NCBI GenBank assembly: GCA_017527155.1
Contig: JAFXQI010000026.1
Location: 883-64,882 of the forward strand
Length of the DNA stretch: 64,000 bases
Direction of reading: 5' to 3'
Origin: Kiritimatiellia bacterium
Lineage (GTDB): Bacteria > Verrucomicrobiota > Kiritimatiellia > CAIQIC01 > Lenti-01
Under the pieces are notes generated by a model. It saw only the letters and a program-made list of their open reading frames with translations, was not told where the DNA came from and made no database searches. The position numbers and the translations under genes are program-made. This document shows positions 5,437 to 58,800 of this stretch, piece after piece (positions within the stretch are counted from its first letter, which is position 1; every line of letters starts with the position of its first letter).

Positions 5437-5481
5437 TCGATTGCAATCGATTGCAGTCGAGTGCATTCGATTGCAATCGAG
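5437..5481. repeat. tandem 10-nt palindromic repeat R10 (putative bidirectional terminator)
   Basis: TCGA(TTGCAATCGA)(TTGCAGTCGA)(GTGCATTCGA)(TTGCAATCGA)G. TGCAATCGATTGCA is a perfect palindrome. Lies 42 nt after the frr stop, with T-runs on both sides. Confidence 0.7.
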
Positions 5482-9068: not shown

Positions 9069-9204
9069 GTTTTCCAACCATTGGAAAAAAGTTCCCGCCG
9101 TTTTCCAATGATTGGAAAAATTTTTGCCGTTTTTTCCAATGATTGGAAAATATTTTTCCAATGGTTGGAAAATTCCGCGGATTTTTTCCAATGGTTGGAA
9201 AATG
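9069..9204 (-). repeat. AT-rich palindrome array A (5 copies, inverted relative to arrays B/C/D)
   Basis: Five TTTTCCAA-N3-TTGGAAAA units centred at 9079, 9110, 9141, 9163 and 9193. The spacing 31-31-22-30 mirrors arrays C and D. Confidence 0.9.
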
Positions 9205-9250: not shown

Positions 9251-9320
9251 GGTGGGGCGAGCACGCCGTGCGAGCCGCACAACCGATTGGAACGGCTCGC
9301 TCGGAGAGCTCGCCCCACCC
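9251..9320. repeat. REP-1 hairpin (inverted orientation)
   Basis: GGTGGGGCGAGCACGCCGTGCGAGCCG ... CGGCTCGCTCGGAGAGCTCGCCCCACC. Same family as 50737-50803 and 52314-52388. Confidence 0.75.
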
Positions 9321-9811: not shown

Positions 9812-9830
9812 GGGGGGATTTCTTTCTTTT

Positions 9831-9872
9831 CGAGTGCAATCGAGTGCAGTCGAGTGCAGTCGATTGCAATCG
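9831..9872. repeat. tandem 10-nt palindromic repeat R10
   Basis: (CGAGTGCAAT)(CGAGTGCAGT)(CGAGTGCAGT)(CGATTGCAAT)CG. Lies 7 nt downstream of the stop of the 851-aa gene (minus strand). Confidence 0.7.
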
Positions 9873-15400: not shown

Positions 15401-17085
15401 CCGGTGCCGTCGGCGTAGCTCATGGAGCGGTAGATCTTCGTCGCGACCCACAGCCCCAGGTGGTCGGTGCTGACCTCGCTCGCGGCCGCCTTCGTCCAGC
15501 TCGGGCGCAGGTTGTCGCCGATCTGGTTCGTCGAACTGCCGCCGAAGAGCACGCACTTGTTGTCGGCCGACTTGCTGCGCATCCCGGCCCAGCCCGTGAA
15601 GGGGTCTTTCAGGCTCGCCCGCATCAGGTCCGTCCGGTACGAGTCGCCCATCTTCCCGATCGCCTCCTCCGTCAGCGCCGCCGCCGGGATCTCGTTCGTC
15701 GCGTACCACGCCAGATCGAAGCACCCCGCCGTGTTGTTGTGCAGGTTGAACGTGTTGTAGATGCCGGAGACGAACCAGCTGTTGTCGTCCGGCCCCGAGT
15801 ACTTGATCCACGTCGGGTTCGCCCCCTGCGCCCCGAGGTGCGGACTGCCGAGCGTGACGAGGCGGTGGACCTTCGCCGCGAACTGCGTGTTGACGTTCAT
15901 CGCGTAGCGGCTCACCAGCCCGCCCATGCTGTGGGCCATCACGACCACCTGGCGGCCCTCGAACTCCGGATGCCGGGTGTAGAAATTGTTGAGGAAGTTC
16001 GCGAACCGCACGCCGTTCGTGCTGATGTTGTCGCGCGAGTCGTACACGTAGCGGTAGACGCGGAACATGCTCGAAAGCGGCGCCTGGTTGAAGTAGCCCA
16101 GCGGCGCGTTCGTGTCCGCGTTCATCCACCCGTACCAGTAGTTCAGCGTGTTCGGCTTCGCGTCGCCGCTCATCCCGTGGACCAGGATGATCGGGATCCG
16201 GTCGTCCGTCAGCGTCACCTTCCCGCTCGACGCCCCGCGCAGGCCGGGGTCGCTCGTGCTCTCGTTGTCGTAGTAGAAATCGTTCTTCGCGCTCCCGTAG
16301 CTCGGCGCCATCCGGTCGTTGCTGACCAGCAGCATCACGCCGTCCGCCTCGCCGCTGTCCCCCTCGCAGCTGTACGCCCCCTCGGTCGCGCTCGCCTTGA
16401 AATAGTACTTGCCCGACGCCCACGACGCCTTCATCGTCCGGTTGAAGAAATACGTCCCGCCCGAATACTGCACCGTCGTCGTGTACGTCCCCACCTGGCT
16501 GTCGAACCCCGTCTTCGACTGCCACACCTCCAGCGTCACCGTCCGCCCCGCCGCCAGGTTCGCGCACTCGCCGTAGACCGACACCCAGTCGTTGCTCGAA
16601 ACATCCAGCGGCTGCAGCCACTTCAGGTCCGAGAAGGCCGGCTGGCCCTGCACCGTGAACTTCACGCTCTTCGAGTTGTTCCCCTCGTTGCTCTCGGCGA
16701 TCGCGTTCCCGCCGTCCGCCACGCACGTGATGTAGTAGATGCCCGGCGTCGTGCTCGCGGGAATTGTCCAGCTCAGCGTGTCCGGCTCTTCCTCGCCCTT
16801 GTCGATGCCGTTGACCTCCTGGTAGTTCGGCGTCGCGCCCGAGCCGATCTTCTGCGCCCGGGGATTGCTGGCGGTCCCCCAGTAATAATACACGTCGCAG
16901 TACTTCCACCAGCCCGTCGCGTCCCCGTTGTTGCGCGTCACGCTGTCGATCGTGATCTTCGTGCCCGGGATCGCCTTGTTCGTCGAAAGCGAAATCGACG
17001 AAATCACCAGATCCGGCGCCGCCATCGCCGCCGCCGCCAGCCCCCAGAACGCCCCCGCCGCCAGAACCTTCGCGAATTCCTTCAT
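12448..17085 (-). CDS. secreted 1545-aa CARDB / alpha-beta-hydrolase (lipase, PGAP1-like) / cadherin-repeat protein
   Basis: GGAGG RBS then ATG 17085, followed by a signal peptide. CARDB-like N-domain. IPIILVHGMSGD and GxSxG VVVMAHSMGG (Ser codon ~15928-15930). Two cadherin-like repeats (SAYDEDGDALTYAL, SAVDADAGDEVTYSL). FN3-like modules. Confidence 0.85.
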   Translation of the reverse strand: MKEFAKVLAAGAFWGLAAAAMAAPDLVISSISLSTNKAIPGTKITIDSVTRNNGDATGWWKYCDVYYYWGTASNPRAQKIGSGATPNYQEVNGIDKGEEEPDTLSWTIPASTTPGIYYITCVADGGNAIAESNEGNNSKSVKFTVQGQPAFSDLKWLQPLDVSSNDWVSVYGECANLAAGRTVTLEVWQSKTGFDSQVGTYTTTVQYSGGTYFFNRTMKASWASGKYYFKASATEGAYSCEGDSGEADGVMLLVSNDRMAPSYGSAKNDFYYDNESTSDPGLRGASSGKVTLTDDRIPIILVHGMSGDAKPNTLNYWYGWMNADTNAPLGYFNQAPLSSMFRVYRYVYDSRDNISTNGVRFANFLNNFYTRHPEFEGRQVVVMAHSMGGLVSRYAMNVNTQFAAKVHRLVTLGSPHLGAQGANPTWIKYSGPDDNSWFVSGIYNTFNLHNNTAGCFDLAWYATNEIPAAALTEEAIGKMGDSYRTDLMRASLKDPFTGWAGMRSKSADNKCVLFGGSSTNQIGDNLRPSWTKAAASEVSTDHLGLWVATKIYRSMSYADGTGVGDNDGLVPLISALMSDSLSCAKASDRNAHPTAAKFNLNAMDGQQVDHASYLDVPVTMDAVKAVLLTQVRGYCQPAAAVSAGAAWRLVDNVTGETSPWQRTGVRLPALVPGRSYTVNFKSISEYTKPKDVTFTATKAVTRQVSGTYLTASESNHAPSGLSLSNASVEENAPIGTVVGTLSAYDEDGDALTYALVAGDGDTGNACFSIEGNKLKTAQVFDYEQYPQHFCRIRASDGNGAYTDEAFTIDVIDVDERTPAQETGDAWLNLSWAAVPGADYYEVDVSAGSTDSIYTTPNRSLGTNQFLDGQYWRYEAPGGATTTTEGSVKTSPCWFTYGTTNAHGLFGTNGVALVTRDLPLLGASAVAIDFQNANWNGKGTAAVSRVDAYYRVDGGEWQFIGYNQSKATGDGGETNYWGELVFMPEGAATVAFKLEAPNAWRDSYQRGPYVTTATASLYGQGEFADANVHLEGYPRYVNVTNIQVQNLPAGEPYWWHVRANVNGEWVDVGYGHRKTEDTVPAPTGLSVATASSTELTATWTDPGLVDHFEVQLTPVVAAGTPKDLESVPNVNLSGSANKSGWFYSANHVQVSSNWICATTNTDWDYHGLVVAPAPGIQSPALDLSGCESATLRFVARTRGGDNGETGKPIVLYYKVPGGAWTEAGRVTTNSIYINNNNYLHIDLPAVALVDGVALELGVPDATTSSLWSGYGNGVRNVTLQTVGAPAPDYGAETAIALEPVPAPLADAVEEEATATATAKGLDMNTAYYVHVRSVDAWGHASAWVEASGRTAAASAPSAISLSSRSIRENNAVGAYIGLLSAVDADAGDEVTYSLADGEGADDNALVELSGATVRAAASFRAADAAVRRIRVRATDAQGLWTEASFDLEVLASATPPAGVLVDAETLAAMSAACGVRITAVEGDGAGGVKTAWEDAAPDGARAVRRYDIYVSTNLAEGFTFLQRVEGTEATVPLDGPAKFWTVLAAE

Positions 17086-17115
17086 CGTCAAACCTCCGTC
17101 AACAAACCCACCGCA

Positions 17116-17148
17116 ACTTTTCACTTTTCACTCTTCACTTTTCACTCC
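17116..17148. repeat. 7-8-nt micro-tandem repeat
   Basis: CTTTTCAC TTTTCAC TCTTCAC TTTTCAC in the 56-nt gap between two operon genes; no complementary arm nearby. Confidence 0.6.
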
Positions 17149-17831
17149 GCAGCGCGGACCGCCGCCTTCCGCTGCGCCTGCCGCACCCGGGACGCGGCCG
17201 CGCCCCAGCGTGCCTTCGCCGCCGCCGCCGCTTCCGCGTCGGCCTCTTCCGCCAGCTTCTTCAAATCATCCGGCAGCACCTCCCGCTCCGCCTCGGCGGC
17301 CGCCTTGCGCGCCGCCGCCGCTTTCCTGAGCGCCGCCAGCTTGCCGCCCCCGCGCGCCCCGGCCGGAGCCGGAGCCGCATACCGGATGTCCCCCGCCCCG
17401 AGCCGCACCGCCTCCCCCCTCCACCCGTCCTTCGTCCCCTCCTGGTACCAGTCCGCCAGCCCGCGGAAATGCCGGAAAACCAGCGAATCCGTGTCATTGC
17501 CCCCCGTCACGATGGTCGCCGTCGAGCCATACAGCTCCGACTCCCCGTCATCCCCGACTTCCCCATCCGCGACGGCCGCCCGCACGGCCCCCGCCTCCGC
17601 ATACCGCGACCCTTCCAGCGCGAACACGAACCCCCACGCCGCGACGCCGCCCTCCCCGTCCCGGACCGCCACCGCATCCGCCGGAACCCACCCCTCCCCC
17701 GGAAACGCCTTTTCAACCCCCTCCGCCGCAACCGCTTGCGCCACATCCTGCCCGATTTGGGCCCCCATCGCCCCGCCTGCCAGCATCAACGCCAGAAAAC
17801 CAATCGCCCATTTGTTCACGAATGCTACCAT
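17142..17831 (-). CDS. secreted/membrane-anchored hypothetical protein with Ala/Lys/Glu-rich coiled C-terminus
   Basis: GGAGG RBS then ATG 17831. MVAFVNKWAIGFLALMLAGGAMGA signal or anchor. No recognisable domain. Confidence 0.6.
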   Translation of the reverse strand: MVAFVNKWAIGFLALMLAGGAMGAQIGQDVAQAVAAEGVEKAFPGEGWVPADAVAVRDGEGGVAAWGFVFALEGSRYAEAGAVRAAVADGEVGDDGESELYGSTATIVTGGNDTDSLVFRHFRGLADWYQEGTKDGWRGEAVRLGAGDIRYAAPAPAGARGGGKLAALRKAAAARKAAAEAEREVLPDDLKKLAEEADAEAAAAAKARWGAAASRVRQAQRKAAVRAAE

Positions 17832-20235: not shown

Positions 20236-20270
20236 TCGACTGCAATCGAGTGCAATCGACTGCAATCGAT
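20236..20270. repeat. tandem 10-nt palindromic repeat R10
   Basis: TCGAC TGCAA TCGAG TGCAA TCGAC TGCAA TCGAT, between convergent stops at 20192 (+) and 20310 (-). Confidence 0.7.
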
Positions 20271-32284: not shown

Positions 32285-33427
32285 ATGACGATGAAGAAGA
32301 GCGCAATTGCGATGTCCGCCGCGCTGGCCGCGGCGTTGGTGTGGGCCGCGTCCGCGGTGGCACAGGACGGCCCGGCGGCGGCCGACGGGGCGGCCCAGCA
32401 GCCGCAGGGCCCGAAGCCGTCGATGTTCCTGGTGGGGGTGGCGAAGGCGGGGACGGTGGACCACAATCCGGTGCGGACGTTCAGCGGGCGGGTACTCTCG
32501 CCGGAGACGGTGGCGGTGGTCGCGCAGGTGGCGGGGGAGGTCAAGAAGGTGAACTTCGAGGAAGGCGCGCTCCTCAAGAAGGGCGCGGTGATGTACAAGA
32601 TCGACCCCGTCAAGTACGAGGCCGCCGTCGCCTCGGCCAAGGCGCAGGTGGCGCAGGCCGCCGCGAGCGCGGACTACGCGCGCAAGTCGTTCGACCGCGC
32701 CCAGGCGCTGTTCGACAAGAAGGTCGCCTCCCCCGACGACCTCGACGCGGCCACCTCCGCCAAGGCGCAGGCCGAGGCCACCCTCGCGGCGGCGGAAGCG
32801 GCGCTGGTGACGGCGGAGGACAACCTGGCGCACTGCACGATCAAGGCGCCGGTGGACGGCAAGGTGGGGCTGAACGCGGCGGCGGCGGGCAACTACGTCT
32901 CGACGGCGTCGGGCGCGCTGGCGACGATCGTGCGCCAGGACCCGGTGCGGGTGGCGTTCGCGCCGGGCTCGCGCGACTACCTGGCGGTGTTCGGCGGCGA
33001 GAAGGGGCTCAAGGAGCTCTTCGCGGTGGGCGTGCGCCTGGCGGACGGGACGCTGCTGGAAGGCGGCGAGATCGAGTTCGCCGGCAACGAAGTGAACGCC
33101 TCCACGGACACGATGCCCGTCTACGCGCGCTTCGCGAACCCCGACGGCCTGCTCGTCCCCGGCGCGACGGTGAAGGTCGAAGTGCAGGCGCGCGAACCCC
33201 GCCGCTACGTCTCGCTCCCCGTCACGGCGGTGCAGCGCGACGGCGACCAGGCGTTCGTCTGGATGGTGGGCGAGAACAACCTCCCCGTCCGCCGCGACAT
33301 CGAAGCCGGCCCCGCGACGGCCACCTACCAGACCGTCCTCTCCGGCCTCGAAGCCGGCGAAGAAGTGATCGTCCGCGGCACCCACAAGGTCATGCCCGGC
33401 GTCCCCGTCGAGCCCGTGGAGCTGTAA
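32285..33427 (+). CDS. efflux RND periplasmic adaptor (MFP) subunit
   Basis: Signal peptide. Lipoyl/hairpin pattern GAVMYKIDPVKYEAAVASAKAQVAQAAA...NLAHCTIKAPVDGKVG. C-terminal barrel region. Confidence 0.9.
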   Translation: MTMKKSAIAMSAALAAALVWAASAVAQDGPAAADGAAQQPQGPKPSMFLVGVAKAGTVDHNPVRTFSGRVLSPETVAVVAQVAGEVKKVNFEEGALLKKGAVMYKIDPVKYEAAVASAKAQVAQAAASADYARKSFDRAQALFDKKVASPDDLDAATSAKAQAEATLAAAEAALVTAEDNLAHCTIKAPVDGKVGLNAAAAGNYVSTASGALATIVRQDPVRVAFAPGSRDYLAVFGGEKGLKELFAVGVRLADGTLLEGGEIEFAGNEVNASTDTMPVYARFANPDGLLVPGATVKVEVQAREPRRYVSLPVTAVQRDGDQAFVWMVGENNLPVRRDIEAGPATATYQTVLSGLEAGEEVIVRGTHKVMPGVPVEPVEL

Positions 33428-33435
33428 GCCCCCAC

Positions 33436-34656
33436 ATGCCCCGCAAGCCCGCCAAGCCGCACCCCGCGCCCGCCCCCGTCCCTCCCCTGGACGGATTCGA
33501 CGGCTTGGTCGGCCGCATCGCCGCGGCCTCCGACGCCTTGCGGGAAGGGGCGATGGCCGTCGTCAACCGCAGCGTCACCGCCCGCGCATGGCTCACGGGT
33601 TGCTACATCGTCGAATACGAGCAACACGGCCGCGACCGCGCGCAATACGGGGAGCGCCTGCTCGAACGGTTGGCGGAGCGGCTGGAAGACCGCGGACTTT
33701 CCGTCCCAAGCCTGAAAAAATTCAGGCAATTCTACTTGATGTACCCACGCCTTGCCGGCCCGATTTCCGCCTTTCTCGCCGGTCGGTTCGAAAAAGGACA
33801 GTCGGCGATTATCCAATTGCCTCCGGCCCGAACGGGAAAAGGAGAATCGGCGATTATCCCATCCGGCCCCCGTTCGTTGATTGCAGACGCGGACGGCATT
33901 CCGGAAGTGGACCCCGCGGTCCTTTTTTCACGTCTTTCGTTCACCCACGTCTTGCAGCTGCTTCCGCTCCCCGACCCCCTCCAGCGCACCTTCTACGCGT
34001 GGTCGGCCATCCGCGGCACGTGGAGCGTCCGCGAACTGCGCCGCCAGATCGCCAGCCGCTACTTCGAGCGCAGCGGCTGGAGCGGCGATCCCGCCCGGCT
34101 GGCGCGGCTGACCGACGCCCGTGCCGACACCGAAACGGCGCGCGAAAGCCTCCGTTCGCCGCACGTCTTCGAGTTCCTCGGCCTTGCGGCGAAGGACGTG
34201 TGGGAGGAGAGCGACCTCGAGCAGGCGGTGATCGACCACCTGCAGGCCTTCATGCTCGAGATGGGCCTGGGCTTCTGCTTCGAGGCGCGGCAGAAGAAAA
34301 TCCTGATCGACGGCCGCTACCACAAGATCGACCTCGTCTTCTACCACCGCATCCTCAAGTGCCACGTCCTCGTCGAACTCAAGGCCAAGCGGTTCGGCTA
34401 CGAAGACGCGGCGCAGCTGTCCGTCTACATGGCGCACTACCGCAAGCACGAGATGCAGCCGGACGACAACCCTCCGGTGGGCATCCTGCTGTGCACCGAA
34501 GCGGGGGCCGAGATGGCCGAATACGTCAGCACCTTCGTGGACCCGGGCCTGTTCGTGGCGAAGTACGAAGTGCAGCTTCCGCCGAAGGAGCGCATCGCCG
34601 CCTTCCTCAAGCGCGAGAACGCCCGCAACGCCCCGCCGGCGGGAGGTACGCCATGA
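33436..34656 (+). CDS. YhcG-like PDDEXK nuclease (DUF1016)
   Basis: FEFLGL...ESDLEQAVIDHLQAFMLEMGLGFCFEARQKKILIDGRYHKIDLVFYHRILKCHVLVELKAKRF. Only the last 406 codons of an 806-aa track ORF are credible. Confidence 0.88.
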   Translation: MPRKPAKPHPAPAPVPPLDGFDGLVGRIAAASDALREGAMAVVNRSVTARAWLTGCYIVEYEQHGRDRAQYGERLLERLAERLEDRGLSVPSLKKFRQFYLMYPRLAGPISAFLAGRFEKGQSAIIQLPPARTGKGESAIIPSGPRSLIADADGIPEVDPAVLFSRLSFTHVLQLLPLPDPLQRTFYAWSAIRGTWSVRELRRQIASRYFERSGWSGDPARLARLTDARADTETARESLRSPHVFEFLGLAAKDVWEESDLEQAVIDHLQAFMLEMGLGFCFEARQKKILIDGRYHKIDLVFYHRILKCHVLVELKAKRFGYEDAAQLSVYMAHYRKHEMQPDDNPPVGILLCTEAGAEMAEYVSTFVDPGLFVAKYEVQLPPKERIAAFLKRENARNAPPAGGTP

Positions 34657-34695
34657 CGGCGCGCCTCCGGCGGCCCGCCCGTGGCCTGCGGGGAG

Positions 34696-34820
34696 TTTTC
34701 CAACGATTGGAAAAAAACTTTCCAATCATTGGAAAAACCGGCGCGAATTTTCCAACCATTGGAAAAATATTTTCCAATCATTGGAAAACCGCCGAAAAAT
34801 TTTTCCAATCGTTGGAAAAC
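34696..34820 (+). repeat. AT-rich palindrome array B (5 copies)
   Basis: Units centred at 34705, 34727, 34757, 34779 and 34810 (spacing 22-30-22-31). Long identical runs shared with array C. Confidence 0.9.
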
Positions 34821-34859
34821 TCGCTTTGATCAATAACCCAGCAACAAAAGGACAACGCC

Positions 34860-35567
34860 ATGTCTGACAACCTCTCCACCGACCGCCCGCACAAATCTCC
34901 GCCATGGAAACGCATGCTCGGGATTGCCATTGGATGGCTTCTGGCCATGGGCGTCATGTTGTTGCTGCTGGACGGATGGTGGCGCGATGCACCATCGTTC
35001 GCCGTCATGTGGGGAACGATGGCCTTGTTGATGGCAGTTCCTTTCGCGGTGTCGGCGGCGTTGGTGTGGGGCGGGACGCGGTTGCGGCGCGGCGGCCGTC
35101 GCTGGGGAACGGCGCTCGTGGCCGTCGGGGTGGCCGGATTCATCGCGGCCGGTTCGATTCTGATTACCTTCGGGGGAAGTGCCGGGCCGTGGTGGGAGCG
35201 AATCGTGAAGCACGGGACGTTGCCGAACGGACGCGAATACGTCCTGTCCCAAGCCTGGGTAGACTGGTATGACGGCTACGACATCCGCATCTTCTTCCGC
35301 GAAGCGGACGGGAAATGGGTGTCCCTGTGCGGCGGCCACTGGTGGAAACCGTTCAGGCGCGTTACCGAAATCCAGCTGCATGAACCGGAGGGGGAGGTGG
35401 CCATCCGCACGACGCGCGGCGGCGAGTGGTTGCTGCGGGGGCATCGGACCGTCCACCCGGCGGAGATGACGCCGGAAGAACTCCATGCTTTCCACCGGGC
35501 GGAAATGGAAAATCTCCGCGCTGGGAAAACTCGCTCTGGAGAAGCGCCGCAAGGGGACGCACCATGA
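34860..35567 (+). CDS. A-family membrane protein 1 (4 TM plus soluble C-domain, unknown function)
   Basis: Paralogue of 38696-39382 (GTLPNGREYVLSQAWVDWYDGYDIRIFFREADGKW; HPAEMTPEELHAFHRAEM). Bracketed by arrays B and C. Confidence 0.65.
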   Translation: MSDNLSTDRPHKSPPWKRMLGIAIGWLLAMGVMLLLLDGWWRDAPSFAVMWGTMALLMAVPFAVSAALVWGGTRLRRGGRRWGTALVAVGVAGFIAAGSILITFGGSAGPWWERIVKHGTLPNGREYVLSQAWVDWYDGYDIRIFFREADGKWVSLCGGHWWKPFRRVTEIQLHEPEGEVAIRTTRGGEWLLRGHRTVHPAEMTPEELHAFHRAEMENLRAGKTRSGEAPQGDAP

Positions 35568-35650
35568 CCGCCCTCCTCCAACACCCCTTGCCCATCCCTT
35601 GCGCGGCGGCGCGGCAGGATGCCGCACCTCCCAGGGGGGGGCGGGGTTTC

Positions 35651-35717
35651 GGCCACAAAGAACACAAAGAGCACAAAGGGGGTTGGGAACTTTGTGCCCT
35701 TTGTGTTCTTTGTGGCC
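35651..35717. repeat. 28-bp-stem hairpin built from 9-nt units
   Basis: GGCCACAAAGAACACAAAGAGCACAAAG, 11-nt loop, CTTTGTGCCCTTTGTGTTCTTTGTGGCC (one mismatch). Confidence 0.8.
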
Positions 35718-35751
35718 AAAAAGGGATGGAGGGCGCGTCCAGGGGCGGAAA

Positions 35752-35910
35752 AATTTTCCAACCATTGGAAAAAAAGTTTCCAATCATTGGAAAAACCGGC
35801 GCGAATTTTCCAACCATTGGAAAAATATTTTCCAATCATTGGAAAAAACCGGAAAATTTTTTCCAATCATTGGAAAACCGGCGAAAAATTTTTCCAATCG
35901 TTGGAAAACT
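35752..35910 (+). repeat. AT-rich palindrome array C (6 copies)
   Basis: Units centred at 35763, 35785, 35815, 35837, 35868 and 35899 (spacing 22-30-22-31-31). Confidence 0.9.
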
Positions 35911-36286
35911 CGCCGCCCTCCTGCTCCTGCTGGCGGCGCCGTCGGCGCGCGCGGAAGACACGGTCTGGATGCCCGACCCCGCCGCCGTGGTCCGCTATAT
36001 GCGGACGGGCCCCTGGGACCGCACGGAGCGCGAAGTGCCGAAGGCCGAAGGAGACGGCATCATCGAGCTGCTGCGCGACGCCGAGCCGTTCCCGCGCCGC
36101 TATGTCCTCGAATCGAACCGGCATGACGGCGGGACGCTTTCCGGCGTCGCCCGCCTGTTTTACGGCGACGGCAATCTCTGGCGCATCATTTGGGAGGCTA
36201 ACAAAGACGCCGTTCCCGACCCGGACCGCCCCAAACCCGGCACCTCCCTCGTGATTCCCGCCCTGGCGGAAGGGGCCGCGCCGTGA
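35888..36286 (+). CDS. secreted LysM-domain protein (start codon unresolved)
   Basis: Signal-like KLAALLLLLAAPSARA and C-terminal LysM (TLSGVARLFYGDGNLWRIIWEANKDAVPDPDRPKPGTSLVIP). No ATG/GTG/TTG lies before the signal peptide. In-frame ATT 35888 and ATC 35897 lie inside array C; the nearest in-frame ATG is at 35726. Confidence 0.55.
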   Translation: MFPIVGKLAALLLLLAAPSARAEDTVWMPDPAAVVRYMRTGPWDRTEREVPKAEGDGIIELLRDAEPFPRRYVLESNRHDGGTLSGVARLFYGDGNLWRIIWEANKDAVPDPDRPKPGTSLVIPALAEGAAP

Positions 36287-36401
36287 CGGCAGGGCGGCAA
36301 AGGCGGCGTTTTCCCGTCCGATTGCAACCGAAGGCATTCGACGGCACGTGGTTTTCCCCGGCGTTCCCCTCTGGAATCCCATCCGCCCGGACTTCCAACC
36401 C

Positions 36402-36959
36402 ATGAAAAAACTCTTCCACATCCTCTTCGACACCGCTTGGGGGCCCGCCGCCGCCTGGGTTGTCGCCGGGGCCCTGGCAGGGGTTGCCTCCAATGCTTGC
36501 GCCGTTCATCCGGGCGACCCACGATCCACCATGCTCCTTGTCCTCGTCTGCCTGCCGCTTCTTTTGGCCGCCCTTGTCGCCTTGGGCGCGTTTGTCCGCT
36601 CGCTTCTGCGCCGGCGCTTTCTCCATGCCCTGCTCCAGATTCTCTTGATCGTTGCCGCCCAGGCGGCAACCGGCGTGGCCGTTGTCCCGTTGCTCGCTCC
36701 GGTCAACCGTTCGACTCCCATCCACACCCCGGACGCTCCACCCTCTCCTGACTCCTCCCTCCCCCCTTCCGCCCCTCCCGTCTCCCAGACATCCGAGTCC
36801 GCGCAGCGGCATTCGAGGCATTCTTGTAGATTCCGACCTCCCGCTTTCTTTCCGCAATTTGTCCGCCCGCAGGGCGCACCGCATCTTGTCACTTGTCACT
36901 TGTCACTGTGCCGGAGCCGCCCCCTTCCCGGGGTTGACGGAACAGGTCAAATGAACTAG
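36402..36959 (+). CDS. hypothetical membrane protein
   Basis: MKKLFHILF, then 3-4 hydrophobic helices and a Pro/Ser-rich tail that runs through a (CTTGTCA)x3 repeat at 36885-36906. The 3' end is uncertain. Confidence 0.4.
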   Translation: MKKLFHILFDTAWGPAAAWVVAGALAGVASNACAVHPGDPRSTMLLVLVCLPLLLAALVALGAFVRSLLRRRFLHALLQILLIVAAQAATGVAVVPLLAPVNRSTPIHTPDAPPSPDSSLPPSAPPVSQTSESAQRHSRHSCRFRPPAFFPQFVRPQGAPHLVTCHLSLCRSRPLPGVDGTGQMN

Positions 36960-36986
36960 TCTTCATGGCAGAAAGGAACGCCCCCC

Positions 36987-37265
36987 ATGACGGAACCCGC
37001 ACCTGCAATCGGATTGTTCGAAGCCAAGACGCATTTTTCGCGCATCGTCGACGACGTGGTCAACGGGCGCAGCGGCGCCGTGCCGGTGATGCGCCGCGGG
37101 AAACCGGCCGTGTACATCGTGGCGGACGCCTTCTACCGCCAGGCCACCGCCGGGGCCTCCCCGGGCATCCGCTACGGGCTGGCCAAGGGCAAATACCGGT
37201 TGGCGCGCGGCATCGACGCCGGCAACGCCGAAGTCCTCCGGCTCTTCCGCGGCGGTGAAGCGTGA
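36987..37265 (+). CDS. type II antitoxin, Phd/YefM-like
   Basis: 92 aa. GLFEAKTHFSRIVDDVVNG...PVMRRGKPAVYIV. Stop overlaps the toxin GTG start (GTGA). Confidence 0.75.
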   Translation: MTEPAPAIGLFEAKTHFSRIVDDVVNGRSGAVPVMRRGKPAVYIVADAFYRQATAGASPGIRYGLAKGKYRLARGIDAGNAEVLRLFRGGEA

Positions 37266-37648
37266 AGTACCTGCTGGACACGCACCTGCTGCTCTGGGCC
37301 ATCGTGGACGACCCCGCCTTCCCTCCGCGCGCCCGCAAGCTCCTGGCGGAAAGCGGCGCCGAGGCCTACTTCAGCGCCGCGTCCGTCTGGGAGGTGGCCA
37401 TCAAGAACGGCCTGCCCCACCGCTCGCTGGGGATACCGGCGGACGCCTTCCGGCGCGAATGCCTGGCGGCGGGCTTCCGCGAACTGCCCGTTGCGTCGCG
37501 CCACGCGGCGGCGGTCGAGTCGCTCCCGCACCGCCACGAGGACCCCTTCGACCGCATCCTCCTCGCCCAGGCCATCGAAGAAGACTGCACCTTCCTGACC
37601 CACGACACCCTCCTCCCCTCCTACGGCCCTCCCGTCCGCCGCGTGTGA
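37262..37648 (+). CDS. vapC: PIN-domain toxin
   Basis: MKYLLDTHLLLW, SVWEVAIK, HEDPFDRILLAQA, LTHD. The conserved acidic PIN residues are in the expected order. Confidence 0.85.
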   Translation: MKYLLDTHLLLWAIVDDPAFPPRARKLLAESGAEAYFSAASVWEVAIKNGLPHRSLGIPADAFRRECLAAGFRELPVASRHAAAVESLPHRHEDPFDRILLAQAIEEDCTFLTHDTLLPSYGPPVRRV

Positions 37649-37675
37649 CCCGTCCGCCCGGAAAACCGCAACACC

Positions 37676-38287
37676 TCAGTACCGCCCTCCATATTCCTTC
37701 CGCGCTTCGGCCGTCCATTTGGCGACGAAACCGCCCTTTGCATCCGTGTAGGCATCCCGGTCGTGCTCATGCCGCTTCCACAGGCGGAGCTTCAGCGATT
37801 CATATTCCTTCGCGGCGTCGGGGTGCTCGTTCAGGTAATCGCGGAAGTACAGCTCGCCGTTGTCCCCGGCATGCCGCAGGTGGATATGGTACACCTTGTC
37901 CGTAAACCCGTTTGGGGTATATCCCTTGTTGAGCGAGATCCTGGCCGCCCCGGCGGACATGACGGCAAAGCCGTTCCGTTCCAATATCCGGGCCAGGTCC
38001 TCCAATCCGCCGCTTTCGGGCACTTCGACCAGCACATCGACAATGTTCTTTGCCCATATCCCTTTGATCGCCGTGCTCCCGATGTGGCTGATCCTGCGGA
38101 TGGGACGTCCTGCGAACAGCTTCTTCAGCAGCATTTCCATCTCCCTGTAGTCCTCCGCCCACTTGCCATCAGGCTCGACAAGGACGATCGGAAACAGCTC
38201 CCACAATTCTTCCAACGACATCTCCGACAATTCTTTTCCCATGGCTGCCAACTCCCCAAGCGCCGATTTGCCGTCGGCCCTTTGCAT
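37676..38287 (-). CDS. GrpB family protein (UPF0157 nucleotidyltransferase fold)
   Basis: ISHIGSTAIKGIWAKNIVDVLVEV...YHIHLRHAGDNGELYFRDYLNEHPDAAKEYESLK. Visibly lower GC than neighbours. Alternative start at 38242. Confidence 0.85.
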   Translation of the reverse strand: MQRADGKSALGELAAMGKELSEMSLEELWELFPIVLVEPDGKWAEDYREMEMLLKKLFAGRPIRRISHIGSTAIKGIWAKNIVDVLVEVPESGGLEDLARILERNGFAVMSAGAARISLNKGYTPNGFTDKVYHIHLRHAGDNGELYFRDYLNEHPDAAKEYESLKLRLWKRHEHDRDAYTDAKGGFVAKWTAEARKEYGGRY

Positions 38288-38460
38288 GCAAATTCCGTAG
38301 AGCCACCAGTGCTCTTCACCGCCTTCCGCTTATATCCCCGCCCCCCTTGCCCCGCAAGAAAAAGAAGGTGCCCCGAATGCCCTTTCCTTTGGGCGGATTG
38401 GAACGGGATTTTCCAAGCTCACCCCATCCACGTCCCGCCCGCGCAGCGGGCGCACCGCAC

Positions 38461-38540
38461 TGAAAGGGTGAAAGGTTGAGGGAGTACGTTGAAGGGCCAT
38501 TCTTCGACTTTTCAACCTTTCGACTTTTCAACCTTTCACC
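38461..38540. repeat. hairpin with 8-nt micro-tandem arms, copy 1
   Basis: TGAAAGGGTGAAAGGTTGAGGG...GTTGAAGGG, loop, TCTTCGAC TTTTCAAC CTTTCGAC TTTTCAAC CTTTCACC. Confidence 0.75.
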
Positions 38541-38695
38541 CGTCGGGGCGGCCGCCGCGACGCGCGTTTCCCGTTGTCTCGCGCCGCGCCTTCTGCTAGA
38601 CGTTCCCTTGCAACCACACCTCTACGAACCAGAAGGGAACAAGGAGTGAGAACCATGGAGATGAAAAGCGGAAAAATGAAGCGGAAGGTGACGCC

Positions 38696-39382
38696 ATGAC
38701 GGCGGGACGGAAGTGGCTCTTGGGGGGATTGCTCGCGGTCGGCGCGGCGGCGGCGTTTTGCGGGCTTGCGTACTGGTTCTGGCGCGACGCGGTGTCGGTA
38801 CTCGCCCTGGTTTGGGTGCTTTGGATCCTGCTCGGCATCCCCGTCGCCTTGTGCGGATGCCTCTACTGGGCCGGACGCCGGCGCATCGGCTCCGGACGCC
38901 GCGGCGGACGGGCGATGGTCGGCGCGGCCCTGGCGGGCGGCGTGCTGGCCACCGCATTTTTCGGCTATTACCTCTGGATTGCCGGGCCGTGGTACAACGG
39001 CATCGTCCTGCGCGGGACGGCTCCGGACGGCGGCGAATACATCCTCTCCCAGGCGTGGACCGACTGGTTCGACGGCTACGACATCCGCCTCTTCCACCGC
39101 CAGCCGGACGGACAATGGCTCTCGCGCTGGGGCGGCTACAATTGGGAGTCGTATTACCGCGGCTACGAAATCGAGTGGAGCGGCCGCGCCCCCGTGATCC
39201 GGCTGGCCGACGGCAGCGAGCGCGGCTTCAACCACCGTCCCGACCGCCAAACCACCCATCCCGCTTTCCTTTCGCCCGACGACCTCCACGCCCTCCACCT
39301 CGCCGAAATGCGCACCGACCGCTCCATCCCCGGCATCTGGCACATCCTGAACAATGCGGATTCGGAAAGAGGCGCGCAATGA
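38696..39382 (+). CDS. A-family membrane protein 2
   Basis: 4 TM helices. GTAPDGGEYILSQAWTDWFDGYDIRLFHRQPDGQW; HPAFLSPDDLHALHLAEM. Paralogue of 34860-35567. Confidence 0.65.
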   Translation: MTAGRKWLLGGLLAVGAAAAFCGLAYWFWRDAVSVLALVWVLWILLGIPVALCGCLYWAGRRRIGSGRRGGRAMVGAALAGGVLATAFFGYYLWIAGPWYNGIVLRGTAPDGGEYILSQAWTDWFDGYDIRLFHRQPDGQWLSRWGGYNWESYYRGYEIEWSGRAPVIRLADGSERGFNHRPDRQTTHPAFLSPDDLHALHLAEMRTDRSIPGIWHILNNADSERGAQ

Positions 39383-39837
39383 AAAAGGAACGGCCCCGAA
39401 TGCGGATCAGATAAGCTCCGCCCGCCCATGGAACAAGCCCGCCCGCTCCCCGTTCTCCCCTGCCTGTGGCGCAAAACACGGAGCGTGCGGAGAAAGGAGA
39501 CACGGAGCTTTTCCAGGGAGGAGCTTCGCACTTCCAAAAACGTCCTCTCAGGAATAAGGGGCCAGGCCCGAACTTCCGCACTCCAGCCGTTCCTTTGTTT
39601 TCTTTTGTCCTTTTGTGCAAAAGCGCTCTCCAAGCCCTCCGCGTCTCCGCGTGGGTTTTCCTTCCCGAATCCCTCCCGCTCCCTTGTCGGACTTGGCGGA
39701 CTTTGAGTGGGACATTCTTCCGCCCTCCATCCGCCATGGCGCGGCAAGATGCCGCACCCCCGGAAGTGGCGCGGAAGCTTCCGGGCATGCATCGCGGGGA
39801 TTTCGGCGGGGCGGCTTCCAGGTAGGGCGCTGGATGT

Positions 39838-39878: not shown

Positions 39879-39930
39879 TTCCAGGCGCCCCGCGGGCCTC
39901 CCGCCCGCGCCCCGACTGCACATCCGCGAA

Positions 39931-40070
39931 GGGTTGAAAGGTTGAAGGGGTGAAAGGTTGAAGGGTTGAAGGGTTGAGGGAATGGGCCGTCCTTCATCTT
40001 TTCAACCTTTCCACCTTTCAACCTTTCAACTTTTCAACCTTTCAACCTTTCAACCTTTCAACCTTTCACC
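39931..40070. repeat. large asymmetric hairpin with 8-nt micro-tandem arms, copy 2
   Basis: Left arm has ~6 units of GTTGAAGG/GTTGAAAG (39931-39980). Right arm has 10 units of CTTTCAAC (39991-40070). Ends 110 nt upstream of the RND start. Confidence 0.85.
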
Positions 40071-49318: not shown

Positions 49319-49361
49319 TCGATTGCAGTCGAGAGCAGTCGAGAGCAATCGAATGCAGTCG
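49319..49361. repeat. tandem 10-nt palindromic repeat R10
   Basis: TC(GATTGCAGTC)(GAGAGCAGTC)(GAGAGCAATC)(GAATGCAGTC)G, between convergent stops at 49186 (+) and 49383 (-). Confidence 0.7.
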
Positions 49362-50736: not shown

Positions 50737-50803
50737 GGTGGGGCGAGCTCTCCGAGCGAGCCGCTCCTTTACCTTGCGGCTCGCACGGAGTGCTCGCCCT
50801 ACC
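50737..50803. repeat. REP-1 hairpin
   Basis: GGTGGGGCGAGCTCTCCGAGCGAGCCG, loop, CGGCTCGCACGGAGTGCTCGCCCTACC. Confidence 0.8.
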
Positions 50804-50824: not shown

Positions 50825-52279
50825 TCACCCTTCCGAGGCCGCGACGGCCTTCGCCCAGGCGCGCTCCACCAGCTCGGGCGGCGGGGGCTCGATGAGGCCC
50901 GCGTCGCAAAGGGTGGCGAGCGAGGCGCGGGCGGCGGCGATGTCGCGGGCGGCGCGTTCGGCGACGGCGCCGGGCGGCAGCGGACGGCGGGCGAGGCCTT
51001 CGACGATGGCTTGTTGGGCGACGGCTTCGGCGGTTTCGGCGAAGACGGTTTCTTCGTCCATCGTCGGCATGATGCGGTCGGGCGCGAGGCCGGTGCGCTC
51101 GGCGTGGGCGGCGATGGTGCGGGCGGCGGCGATGGCCATCGCGTCGGAGATTTTCCGGGCGCGCACGAGGAGGACGCCTTTCAGGATGCCGGGGAAGCCG
51201 ACCGAGTTGTTGACTTGGTTCGGGAAGTCGCCGCGGCCGGTCGCGACGACGAGCGCGCCCGCGGCGTGCGCCGCGTAGGGATAAATCTCCGGCACCGGAT
51301 TCGCGCACGCGAAGACGATGGCGCGCGGCGCCATGCGGGCGATCCACTCGCCGGGGATGGCGTCGGGGCCGGGCTTGGCGAGCGATACCAGCGCGTCGGC
51401 GCCGGCGAGCGCGGCGTCGAGCGTCGCGATGCGGTCCGGGTTGGTGGTGCGGCAGAGCTCCCATTTGCGGTAAAAGCGCGGGTCGGCTTCGAGGTCCGTG
51501 CGCCCGGCGTGGAGCCCGCCGCGCGAGTCGAAGAGCGCCATCCGCGACGGGTCCGCGCCCGCCGCGATGAGGAGCCGCGCGATGGTGGTGTTCGCCGCGC
51601 CGGCGCCGTTGAGGACGATGCGCGCTTGGGACAGCTCCTTGCCGGCGACCTTCATCGCGTTGATCATCCCCGCGACGGTGACGCACCCGGTGCCCTGCGC
51701 GTCGTCGTGCCAGACGGGGATGGAGCAGCTCTCGCGCAGCTCGTCGAGGACCTTGAAGCAGTTCGGCTGGGAGATGTCCTCGAGGTTGACCGCGCCGTAG
51801 CTGGGCGCGAGGCGACGCACGAGGTCGATGAGCACGTCGGGATCCGGCTTCCCGCCGGGCCCGCGGCTGTCGATGCATACGGGGACGGCGTCCACGCCGC
51901 CGAGCACCTTCATGAGGTACGCCTTGCCCTCCATGACGCCCATGCCGCCGGGCGGCGTGACGTCGCCGTCGCCGAGCACGCGGGTGGAGTCGCTGACGAC
52001 GGCGACGGTGTTCCCGCGGCAGGTGAGTTCGAACGACAGGTCGTTGTCGTCGCGGATGGCGGTGGATACGGCGGAGACGCCCGGCGTGTACCACGCGTTG
52101 TACCACGCGCTCGACGGCAGCGGCGCGCGGGGCATGGTCTGGATCTTGCCGCCCCAGAAGCGGTGGGCGTCGAGTGCGAGCGCCTTGTAGAACGCGGTCT
52201 TGGCGCGCGCCTTGCGCGCCTCGTCCCAACCGCCGGGAATGCGCCCGGCGAGCGGATCGGAATGGATGGTTTCGTTCAT
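50825..52279 (-). CDS. NAD(P)-dependent malic enzyme (short form, no PTA domain)
   Basis: YTPGVSAV, VAVVSDSTRVLGDGDVTPPGGMGVMEGKAYL, VNLEDISQPNCF, IPVWHDDAQGTG, NGAGAANTTIA. Only the last 484 codons of a 1064-aa track ORF are credible. Confidence 0.92.
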   Translation of the reverse strand: MNETIHSDPLAGRIPGGWDEARKARAKTAFYKALALDAHRFWGGKIQTMPRAPLPSSAWYNAWYTPGVSAVSTAIRDDNDLSFELTCRGNTVAVVSDSTRVLGDGDVTPPGGMGVMEGKAYLMKVLGGVDAVPVCIDSRGPGGKPDPDVLIDLVRRLAPSYGAVNLEDISQPNCFKVLDELRESCSIPVWHDDAQGTGCVTVAGMINAMKVAGKELSQARIVLNGAGAANTTIARLLIAAGADPSRMALFDSRGGLHAGRTDLEADPRFYRKWELCRTTNPDRIATLDAALAGADALVSLAKPGPDAIPGEWIARMAPRAIVFACANPVPEIYPYAAHAAGALVVATGRGDFPNQVNNSVGFPGILKGVLLVRARKISDAMAIAAARTIAAHAERTGLAPDRIMPTMDEETVFAETAEAVAQQAIVEGLARRPLPPGAVAERAARDIAAARASLATLCDAGLIEPPPPELVERAWAKAVAASEG

Positions 52280-52313: not shown

Positions 52314-52388
52314 GGTGGGGCGAGCTCTCCGAGCGAGCCGCATGGGGCCGGGGAGGAGGGCGGCTCGCACGGAGTGCTCGCCCTACCA
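52314..52388. repeat. REP-1 hairpin
   Basis: Same arms as 50737-50803 in the same orientation, with a different loop; it directly precedes array D. Confidence 0.8.
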
Positions 52389-52399
52389 CGGCTGGAAAC

Positions 52400-52556
52400 G
52401 TTTTCCAACCATTGGAAACTTTTTTTCCAATCATTGGAAAAAACGGGCCCGATTTTCCAACCATTGGAAAAATATTTTCCAATCGTTGGAAAAAACGGGA
52501 AAATTTTTTCCAATGGTTGGAAAACGGCCGGGAATTTTTTCCAATCATTGGAAAAC
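52400..52556 (+). repeat. AT-rich palindrome array D (6 copies)
   Basis: Units centred at 52410, 52432, 52462, 52484, 52515 and 52546 (spacing 22-30-22-31-31, identical to array C). Confidence 0.9.
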
Positions 52557-52698
52557 CGCGGGGGGCGCGCCGCGGGCAAAAAAGGCCCCCCGGCCGCGTC
52601 GGTGGGGATGCTTGTGATGGCCGGTCCCGGGAGGGGGGGGAGAGGGAGCCGGCCGAGCGCCGAGCGCGGGCAGGGGGCGAGGGTTCCGGGGCGGGCGG

Positions 52699-53493
52699 TC
52701 AGAAGGAGAAGCTCGCCTTGCCGCCGCCGTAGTAGTCCATGGCGTCGTCGGTGGTCGTGCCGAAGAAGCCGCTGATCGTGAACAGGTCGTTCGCGCGGAA
52801 CGCGAGGCCGGCGTGGCAGCGGACCCAGCAGTCGCTGTCCTTTTTCGGCGCGTCGTCGCGCAGCTGGACTTCGGCGAAGAGGCTGGAGAGGACGCCGCCG
52901 TAGACGCGCGGCATCTCGTTGAGGTCCCAGATCAGGGAGACCGCGCCCATCGCGACATCGTCGTCGGTGAAGTTGATGGCGTCGTTGATGCCGTAGCTGA
53001 TGTCGGCGCCCCAGTGGAGGCAGTCGTAGGTGGTGGTGCCGGCGGAGATGCCGAAGGTGGCGCCCGTGGTGCCGGTGCCGAGGCGGTCGTCTTCGTCGCC
53101 GGTCGCCCAGCGGACGTCGACGTAGGGGATGATCCACGCGTAGTCGAAGATGTCCTCGAAGAACAGGAACTGCAGGCCGGTGTGGACGTCGCCGATGCCG
53201 GACTTGTCCTTTTCGTGGCTGAAGTCCCAGCCGGCGAAGGGCACCCACGCGGTCAGGGCCAGGCGGTCGGTGATGCCGAAGCGGGCGGCGGGGCCGACCT
53301 GGTAGATGACGGCGTCGTCGGTCGAGTATTCCGCGTCGAATCCGGCGAAGATGCCCTGGACGGAGAGTTCGACGCCCAGCTGCTCGGGCAGGCGGTTTTC
53401 CATCGTGAAGAGCGTGCGGACGGGTTCGGCCGACGCCACGGACGCGAGCAGCCCCAGGGCCGCCACGGATACCATCAGTTTTTCGAATCTCAT
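52699..53493 (-). CDS. outer-membrane beta-barrel protein (MetA/phenol-degradation-like transporter family, tentative)
   Basis: Signal peptide MRFEKLMVSVAALGLLASVASA. Alternating amphipathic beta pattern. C-terminal ...GGGKASFSF with terminal Phe. Confidence 0.6.
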   Translation of the reverse strand: MRFEKLMVSVAALGLLASVASAEPVRTLFTMENRLPEQLGVELSVQGIFAGFDAEYSTDDAVIYQVGPAARFGITDRLALTAWVPFAGWDFSHEKDKSGIGDVHTGLQFLFFEDIFDYAWIIPYVDVRWATGDEDDRLGTGTTGATFGISAGTTTYDCLHWGADISYGINDAINFTDDDVAMGAVSLIWDLNEMPRVYGGVLSSLFAEVQLRDDAPKKDSDCWVRCHAGLAFRANDLFTISGFFGTTTDDAMDYYGGGKASFSF

Positions 53494-53898: not shown

Positions 53899-53934
53899 CG
53901 GACGGAGCGGCTCGCTCGGAGAGCGTGCCCACCA
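53899..53934. repeat. partial REP-1 arm
   Basis: GGAGCGGCTCGCTCGGAGAGCGTGCCCACC matches one arm of the REP-1 family. Confidence 0.5.
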
Positions 53935-58781: not shown

Positions 58782-58800
58782 TTTTCCAATCATTGGAAAA
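58782..58800. repeat. solo copy of the 19-bp AT-rich palindrome
   Basis: TTTTCCAATCATTGGAAAA, located between the UE copy and the GT4 start. Confidence 0.85.

Follow-up and report, generated by a model that had tools for sequence, protein, structure and literature searches.

A 19-bp AT-rich palindrome with the core TTTTCCA-N5-TGGAAAA is apparently an undescribed, widespread cis-element of Kiritimatiellota-type genomes of the Planctomycetes-Verrucomicrobia-Chlamydiae (PVC) group, in which it occurs as solo copies, pairs or arrays. We studied this element in a stretch of 64,000 nucleotides from a Kiritimatiellia bacterium of the Lenti-01 lineage (GenBank assembly GCA_017527155.1, contig JAFXQI010000026.1, positions 883 to 64,882; hereafter, the window), and in other genomes. 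A preliminary description of the window, made from the letters alone, had drawn attention to a hairpin joined to a palindrome array between a beta-barrel protein gene and a malic-enzyme gene, and had proposed that the palindromes bind a dimeric protein. We consider the palindromes (dyads) to be helically phased, operator-like sites for a dimeric DNA-binding protein, and assign to this reading a probability of approximately one half. The literature that we searched contained no paper matching the palindrome family. Rfam at the gathering threshold reported only two tRNAs in the window and, at a permissive threshold, only sub-threshold miRNA-like hairpin noise in the array, and BLAST searches of plasmids and phages with the array returned nothing; thus, these searches matched no known family or record.

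A pattern search of the window for TTTTCCAA-N3-TTGGAAAA, with up to two mismatches allowed, returned 23 copies, compared to 0.00 expected from 100 dinucleotide shuffles. Because the GC content of the window is approximately 68%, the AT-rich dyads stand out. Direct reading and the pattern search agree on six 19-bp palindromes in array D (52401-52555), located at 52401-52419, 52423-52441, 52453-52471, 52475-52493, 52506-52524 and 52537-52555; the centres at 52410, 52432, 52462, 52484, 52515 and 52546 give spacings of 22, 30, 22, 31 and 31 bp, and the first copy has one mismatch (…GGAAAC). The linkers are 3 nt long, or 11-12 nt long with A/T runs flanking a GC-rich core. Array C, found by the pattern search at 35754-35908, also contains six palindromes spaced 22-30-22-31-31. 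Array B (34696-34819) contains five, spaced 22-30-22-31, and lies 41 bp upstream of a gene for a 235-aa membrane protein; the five palindromes of array A (9070-9202) are in the opposite orientation, with the mirrored spacing 31-31-22-30, between convergent cyclophilin and YqeY genes. A solo palindrome is found at 58782-58800, between a PolyA_pol gene (poly(A) polymerase / CCA-adding enzyme family) and a glycosyltransferase gene. The centres in array D, the identical spacing of array C, the mirror image in array A and the presence of four arrays plus a solo copy in 64 kb had all been given in the preliminary description, and all are borne out here. Tandem Repeats Finder (TRF) detected periods of 22, 31 and 52 in each of the four arrays.

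The MAFFT alignment of the four arrays shows homology over approximately 155 bp, including the linkers (an 'ATA' doublet linker, and 11-12-nt linkers with a GC core and an A-run); with linkers counted, the arrays are approximately 85-90% alike. As judged from this alignment, arrays A-D are paralogous copies of a ~155-bp module, and therefore their identical spacing within this genome is attributed to common descent. The architecture 22-30-22-31-31 had been called rigid; the order is real in arrays D and C, however it reflects recent common descent and is shuffled in related rumen metagenome-assembled genomes (MAGs), namely RGIG6903, RUG11196 and RGIG3480, which, together with locus L099, carry window-type 22/30/31 modules in various orders. 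The window matches a ruminant-gut metagenome contig in ENA (XIEF21-1 scaffold_551, 105.9 kb). No length polymorphism of arrays A-D was found among samples, and spacer lengths are equal in every sample carrying these genes. Short contigs terminate at arrays B and C, as repeats would make them.

Using one genome per species, we searched for two dyads 1-14 nt apart, i.e., at a spacing of 20-33 bp, and obtained at least 112 loci. At least 31 MAGs among the 80 listed contain copies; the GC contents of these MAGs are 51-70%, and the copies show quantised spacing and no fixed distance to gene starts or ends. Among the matches listed, all but one come from MAGs labelled Kiritimatiellae, Lentisphaerae, Verrucomicrobia(ota), 'Spartobacteria', Tichowtungia (a member of the phylum Kiritimatiellota) or 'uncultured bacterium', and within a single MAG, the matches are spread over many contigs. 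The sole match in a viral contig (L118, 10589-10657; IMG/VR UViG_3300035527_000387, 51% GC) has three dyads and may represent a (pro)phage whose host carries the motif. The density is approximately one cluster per 4 kb, a figure obtained from motif-positive loci that had themselves been selected by the motif. The more distant control loci, 468 kb in all, contained the relaxed pattern TTCCA-N5-TGGAA a single time, and metagenome malic-enzyme loci that served as a negative control (80 returned, at most 66% identical) contained no motif. Outside dyads, half-sites show no enrichment (321 observed versus 353 expected), thus the dyad is the unit.

The distances between neighbouring dyads are strongly quantised. 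Among the matches listed, the spacings below 200 bp were 31 bp (135 times), 32 bp (46 times), 22 bp (21 times) and 30 bp (15 times), with almost nothing else. The scan pattern allowed only 20-33 bp; therefore, we restricted the recount to neighbour pairs other than the seed match, and 118 of these 150 pairs, again among the matches listed, have a spacing of 22, 30, 31 or 32 bp. Expressed in helical turns, 22 bp corresponds to 2.1, 31-32 bp to 2.95-3.05 and 52-53 bp to 5. The spacing near whole helical turns, proposed earlier for the window, is thus a general property in other genomes. Variable spacing was not seen, nor were terminal inverted repeats (TIRs) or target-site duplications (TSDs). 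We found no clear rule for whether the two centres of a pair are in mirror or in direct orientation, and an apparent preferred distance of ~2.7 kb between sites became a broad mode under looser matching and was rejected.

The logo built from 217 pairs reads TTTTCCAA-K-S-M-TTGGAAAA, with hardly any variation in the arms and with a central G or C in at least 98% of copies. At positions 9 and 11, the combinations T..A and G..C are used, and C..G or A..T almost never. This pattern points to base-specific reading rather than to mere pairing. In the same pairs, the length of the spacers is conserved and their sequence is not, beyond A/T extensions of the arms. We distinguish three dialects: CCAAT-S-ATTGG at 31 bp, CCAAG-S-CTTGG at 32 bp, and CCAY-N3-GTGG at 22/31 bp. 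The third dialect, TTTTCCAY-N3-GTGGAAAA, was found in L212 (one copy), in L218 (a 22-bp doublet) and in L215 and L216 (31 bp, and 22 plus 31 bp); since it keeps the spacings, the spacing rule survives a change of the half-site. Mutations in the arms mostly affect one side only; they show no clear excess of compensatory changes and are not diagnostic.

Some of the dyads lie within protein-coding genes. Ten such cases were found by Pfam to be real genes, and pairs are in frame in fumarase, Dus, NamZ, HypF and ThiD genes, in which the dyads are translated as FQxLE, FSxxWK or FPxxGK peptides. For example, the fumarase of L111 contains three dyads at aa 158-182 (LFQTLEKLFQALEKKSEEFSRVWKT), directly preceding the conserved GRT(H/Q)LQDA motif, and this segment aligns to PDB 3oce (VQTALHRLIAAFEAKGREFATVIKI) without gaps; the Dus pair of L077 aligns to 1vhn, also without gaps. 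The absence of indels in these two cases, which are the ones checked, indicates that the sites there arose by substitution and not by transposition; thus, transposition is excluded as the general origin. Palindromic repeats in frame within protein-coding genes are known as Rickettsia palindromic elements (RPE); however, RPEs are insertions of 100-150 bp that add peptide segments, whereas neither of the two in-gene cases checked here has additional residues. When orthologous sites of different genomes are compared, the arms are kept at 78 of 80 positions and the flanks, spacers and centres diverge (219/361), a comparison that is biased, since the motif was the criterion by which both loci of every pair were retrieved; the only unbiased case of conservation is the third, non-seed dyad of L013/L097.

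The positions of the sites with respect to genes were analysed with our own gene caller based on the GC frame, the output of which agrees with the real gene calls for the window; the caller is crude, and therefore these statistics are approximate. Multi-copy arrays of the 112 listed loci were assigned to divergent (25), tandem (70) and convergent (10) spacers and to the inside of open reading frames (ORFs; 20), and approximately 85% of copies are outside called ORFs. Non-seed spacers of all three types contain dyads in 14-18% of cases. In tandem contexts, 36 arrays are closer to the upstream stop and 34 to the downstream start. No preferred distance to stops or starts was detected, and large arrays have no recurrent neighbour gene; arrays often begin 0-10 nt past stop codons, and they often occupy the whole of a short spacer between a stop codon and the start that follows. 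With respect to the direction of transcription, the centre base is unbiased (111 C versus 96 G). Promoters were rejected, given that no sigma-70-like match and no fixed start distance were found and that pairs occur in convergent spacers and inside ORFs; likewise, a link to signal peptides, i.e., arrays encoding or abutting them, came down to occasional overlap. As a separate observation, L100 (1800-4100) contains six solo dyads at irregular distances inside two called, putative ORFs.

Fixed arms and centre, enrichment of the dyad, strand neutrality, quantised spacing, the shift of dialects and persistence in ORFs, taken together, argue for a reader of duplex DNA that is symmetric and base-specific. 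A lineage-conserved, sequence-specific DNA-binding protein would occupy each dyad as a dimer, and the phasing would set successive dimers on one face of the helix, allowing cooperative binding as tetramers or short filaments. Cooperative one-face binding of a dimeric protein had been suggested in the preliminary description; the phasing, the dyad enrichment and the sequence-specific centre K-S-M fit this suggestion, although the binding itself is what we infer from them. The system would be of the nucleoid-associated or global-operator type and not an operator for particular genes. Selection (or drive) on the DNA sequence would keep the sites throughout the clade; in the rumen lineage of the window, they would have been amplified into modules of 5-6 copies that spread as dispersed repeats, and one module, together with a hairpin named REP-1, would have been inserted into the spacer between the beta-barrel and malic-enzyme genes. 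A broader proposal, which we consider tentative and somewhat doubtful, is a genome-wide system of phased dyads, in which an abundant nucleoid-associated or global protein reads TTTTCCA-N5-TGGAAAA dyads set exactly two or three helical turns apart, the sites are kept by selection even where they fall in the coding sequence of conserved enzymes, and the dialects diversify with the protein; such a system would amount to a code for chromosome structuring or global control without a described counterpart.

Known operators provide a precedent for such phasing. NrdR boxes (31-32 bp apart), ARG boxes (~21 bp) and sopC of the F plasmid (12 x 43 bp) are palindromes at integral helical turns that are bound cooperatively by oligomers, and the NrdR and ARG distances equal those of the dyads described here. 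These boxes serve one regulon or one partition locus, whereas our dyads are located beside or inside unrelated housekeeping genes on many contigs. The sites parS (ParB), NBS (Noc), matS (MatP) and SBS (SlmA) are likewise dyads, of 13-16 bp, read by dimers in genes and spacers and conserved over a wide range of taxa; however, they are tens of single sites in one chromosomal domain, without phasing at 22/31 bp.

Several points weigh against operator-like sites for a dimeric protein. The motif is patchy: L213 and L214 contain no dyads in 21 kb each, thus the clade as a whole does not depend on it. In L060, an intercistronic insert of 115 bp carries a pair at a place where L026 and L100 have overlapping permease/ATPase genes. 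In the lineage of the window, the arrays behave as a dispersed repeat, with conserved linkers, assembly breaks and array D present as extra DNA; this behaviour and the L060 insert also fit a selfish element. It should be noted that perfect palindromes alone cannot separate recognition of duplex DNA from that of a hairpin (single-stranded DNA or RNA). To these points are added the bias of the conservation test and the crude gene calling mentioned above, and the fact that protein binding, cooperativity and the biological role of the dyads are all properties that we infer.

Molecular drive could have produced a similar distribution, if the dyad is the preferred substrate of a DNA-uptake/recombination machinery and accumulates in the manner of uptake signal sequences (USS) of Pasteurellaceae and DNA uptake sequences (DUS) of Neisseriaceae. 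The dyads share with USS and DUS the clade-wide distribution, lineage dialects, high density (the figure for motif-ascertained loci given above), presence in coding and non-coding DNA, origin by point mutation (without indels in the two in-gene cases checked) and the lack of strand or orientation bias relative to genes; prepilin-type proteins are present as well. We nevertheless consider this explanation unlikely. Known uptake sequences are short, asymmetric 9-12-mers acting singly, whereas here the half-site alone is not enriched and the unit is a 19-bp dyad with strictly quantised spacing in pairs and arrays, with ~85% of copies outside called ORFs. A related comparison is HIP1 (GCGATCGC) of cyanobacteria, a phylum-wide, highly iterated palindrome found in genes and spacers, the function of which is not known; however, HIP1 is 8 bp long, has no pair spacing and is far denser.

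A selfish origin of the type of repetitive extragenic palindromes (REP) and bacterial interspersed mosaic elements (BIME) has to be considered along with the GC-rich hairpin beside array D. This imperfect hairpin, REP-1 (52314-52387), has 28-nt arms that are 89% complementary, an 18-nt loop, and a foot of the GTAG type (GGTGGGG / CCCTACC). Further full copies are found at 9251-9320, by array A, and at 50740-50800, with no adjoining palindrome array, and a fragment is found at 53908-53931; arrays B and C have no REP-1. When the window was searched for REP-1, the copies by arrays A and D were delimited slightly more narrowly, at 9254-9316 and 52317-52384. The ~245-bp unit of REP-1 plus array, proposed in the preliminary description, holds insofar as arrays A and D both adjoin REP-1 in the same relative orientation; it is not the basic unit. 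The junctions differ, being ~12-13 nt in D and ~48 nt in A, where the first palindrome is missing. In other genomes, a GC-rich hairpin within 40 bp of an array was found for 6 of 134 intergenic arrays, compared to ~5 expected, i.e., at chance level. Because REP-1 occurs once alone, arrays B and C are bare, and adjacency elsewhere is at chance, the composite is a genome-specific duplication unit rather than the basic element. REP-1 was found in none of the other genomes sampled; it is a REP-like element confined to this species and does not belong to the clade-wide motif.

A comparable composite exists in the Kiritimatiellia MAG loci L215/L216, in which both arrays begin 10 nt after a REP with a GTAG foot, and the foot has TAGCGTGGA in common with the palindrome centre. 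The two contigs come from different samples and have an identical malic-enzyme protein (P0120) and an identical composite; just upstream of the composite, at ~17020-17260, they differ by net ~155 bp, comprising an insertion and a sequence replacement. Hairpins with a similar foot, GGTAGGGCGG, were also seen in other MAGs of the clade (L045, 4696-4716; L055, 4323-4343), and this suggests a RAYT-type REP family that is separate from the AT-rich dyads.

Under the REP/BIME explanation, the palindromes are hairpins in single-stranded DNA that are multiplied in trans by a RAYT or IS200-type Y1 transposase, and the arrays are BIME-like mosaics, sometimes with a GC-rich REP. The elements of Enterobacteriaceae and Pseudomonas, which are associated with RAYT, are similar in that they are interspersed intergenic palindromes in mosaics with linkers of fixed length, sometimes in tandem arrays; they also bind host proteins (IHF and gyrase in Escherichia coli), a likeness that would extend to the palindromes here only if these are bound by protein. 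The ~85-90% similarity of the window arrays with linkers included, the gain of array D as extra DNA, the two of four arrays that abut REP-1, the very stable fold of the array strand as DNA (z = -13), the arrays of L215 that both follow a REP with TAGCGTGGA in its foot and in the palindrome centre, and a Y1_Tnp gene in a relative are all consistent with such an origin. We regard it as improbable for the dyads in general. The palindrome here is AT-rich in a GC-rich genome, a perfect 19-bp dyad with no GTAG beside it; its arms are common to many genomes of 51-70% GC, unlike species-specific REPs; and spacers of different pairs are unrelated in most genomes. Pairs are located inside conserved genes (without indels in two cases checked) and in divergent promoter regions, thus they are not strictly extragenic, and GC-rich hairpins adjoin arrays at chance level across the clade. 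No RAYT gene was found in the 64-kb window, nor any transposase among its called ORFs by Pfam or contig gene calls; the relative with the Y1_Tnp gene has no palindromes. This 337-aa IS200/RAYT-type gene is located at 18224-19237 of L213, a locus with no dyads in its 21 kb.

Action at the RNA level appears quite improbable. Transcribed palindromes would form hairpins of 8-9 bp that stabilise or terminate mRNAs or direct their processing, which would agree with the many intercistronic positions, with arrays that often start 0-10 nt after stop codons, and with the very stable fold. However, the stems are AU-rich and have no U-tract, the terminator scan was negative, and relatives have canonical terminators at the same place. 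Sites are also present in divergent promoter regions and inside ORFs, with no strand bias; little compensatory change is seen, positions 9 and 11 are limited to T..A or G..C rather than to any pair, and no Rfam match exceeded noise.

The resemblance to DnaA boxes is confined to a part of the data. If each dyad were two convergent 9-mers, arrays could titrate or reactivate DnaA, as datA or DARS do; the half-site of dialect 3, TTTTCCAC(A/G), fits TTWTNCACA, and in L043 (rumen MAG RGIG6903) an array of four copies is located 465 bp upstream of dnaA. This array, at 5493-5594, is located beside ordinary DnaA-box-like 9-mers, and half-sites of dialect 3 (TTTTCCACA) were observed to match the DnaA-box consensus. 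The half-site of the window, TTTTCCAAK, lacks the critical CACA, and the dnaA region of L043 has its own, separate box-like 9-mers. The sampled density of about one cluster per 4 kb implies hundreds of sites per genome, beyond any known DnaA-box system, and DnaA boxes at oriC, datA and DARS are not arranged as strict dyads phased at 22/31 bp. A role of this kind is therefore very improbable.

The remaining classes can be dismissed briefly. Miniature inverted-repeat transposable elements (MITEs) do not fit, given that homology among arrays A-D does not extend past the outer palindromes, with no TIRs or TSD, and that the two in-gene copies checked have no indel. CRISPR requires repeats of 23-50 nt and spacers of ~21-72 nt, compared to 19 nt and 3 or 11-13 nt here, and no cas domains were found in the window. 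Intrinsic terminators were rejected, with no excess over shuffles in the scan, a single hit within the array that equals the shuffle mean, and sites in divergent regions and ORFs. A centromere-like or iteron-like role, which had been among the earlier suggestions, is unlikely because there are four arrays in 64 kb and sites on many contigs per MAG beside unrelated housekeeping genes. The palindrome family thus has features of REP/BIME, USS/DUS, HIP1 and phased operator pairs, and fits none of them.

The location of array D between the stop of the beta-barrel gene and the start of the malic-enzyme gene, reported earlier, is correct. The former (52699-53493, minus strand) encodes a 264-aa protein with a signal peptide, similar to beta-barrel outer-membrane proteins (OMP) and ending in ...SFSF, and lies upstream of array D in the direction of transcription; the latter (50825-52279, minus strand; PF00390 / PF03949) has its start codon 122 bp from the array. 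We sampled relatives by malic-enzyme homology, i.e., independently of the motif, using contigs for which proper gene calls were available. Apart from self matches, the closest homologue shares 77% identity, and many others, at 69-74%, carry the labels Verrucomicrobia, Lentisphaerae or Kiritimatiellia. The OMP-malic synteny is kept in four relatives, in which the spacer is 81-102 bp long, has no array and contains a canonical terminator, GAACCGGTTTTGGCnACAAAACCGGTTCTTTTT. The spacer of the window is 419 bp long and contains array D and REP-1, which therefore represent a lineage-specific gain. The place of the canonical terminator is occupied in the window by a weak terminator-like element, GGCCGGGGGGCC followed by T6 (52578-52595, minus strand), after the OMP gene and before array D; it was found by direct reading and was not flagged by the terminator scan.

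Arrays B and C flank the gene for the 235-aa membrane protein, within a stretch of lower GC content at third codon positions (~33400-39400) that also contains a YhcG/DUF1016 nuclease, a PIN/Phd toxin-antitoxin pair and GrpB, and that may be an acquired island. No transposase, cas or partition genes were found in the window among ORFs called and searched with Pfam or in contig gene calls. Another long hairpin, ccacaaagaacacaaagagcacaaag...ctttgtgccctttgtgttctttgtgg, is located at 35654-35717, between the 235-aa gene and array C. The last copies of array C may overlap the TTG start (35870) of an ORF for a small secreted protein (35726-36286), on which gene callers disagree (ATG 35726 versus TTG 35870 within the array); the call of ATG 35726, made in one contig, translates the entire array C (FQPLEKKFPIIGK...). 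Since the dyad has no stop codon in 5 of 6 reading frames, arrays can be misannotated as coding.

Two other types of repeats were observed in the window. Tandem 10-bp units TCGAnTGCAA, one helical turn per unit, form a second family of intergenic repeats, with 3.4-4.4 copies each according to TRF, in four separate spacers (5437-5480, 9830-9872, 20236-20269 and 49325-49361). Tandem arrays of 8-bp units, GAAGGGTT (x6.2) and TTTCAACC (x8.6), are located at 39928-39977 and 40000-40068, directly upstream of, or at the start of, a large ACR_tran/OEP efflux gene; a related 8-bp repeat, TTCGACTTTTCAACCT (x2.2), is found 1.4 kb upstream, at 38503-38537.

In practical terms, the arrays break metagenome assemblies, mimic coding N-termini, as in array C, and give a strong taxonomic signature for binning. 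The in-gene copies indicate that selection or drive at the DNA level overrides the choice of amino acids in conserved enzymes, an effect that is documented mainly for uptake sequences and HIP1. If operator-like sites for a dimeric protein are indeed what the dyads represent, they would belong to a new sequence-specific system of chromosome organisation or global regulation in a poorly studied PVC phylum, and the motif, with its 19 bp, three dialects and fixed phasing, is sharply enough defined to serve as bait for that protein.

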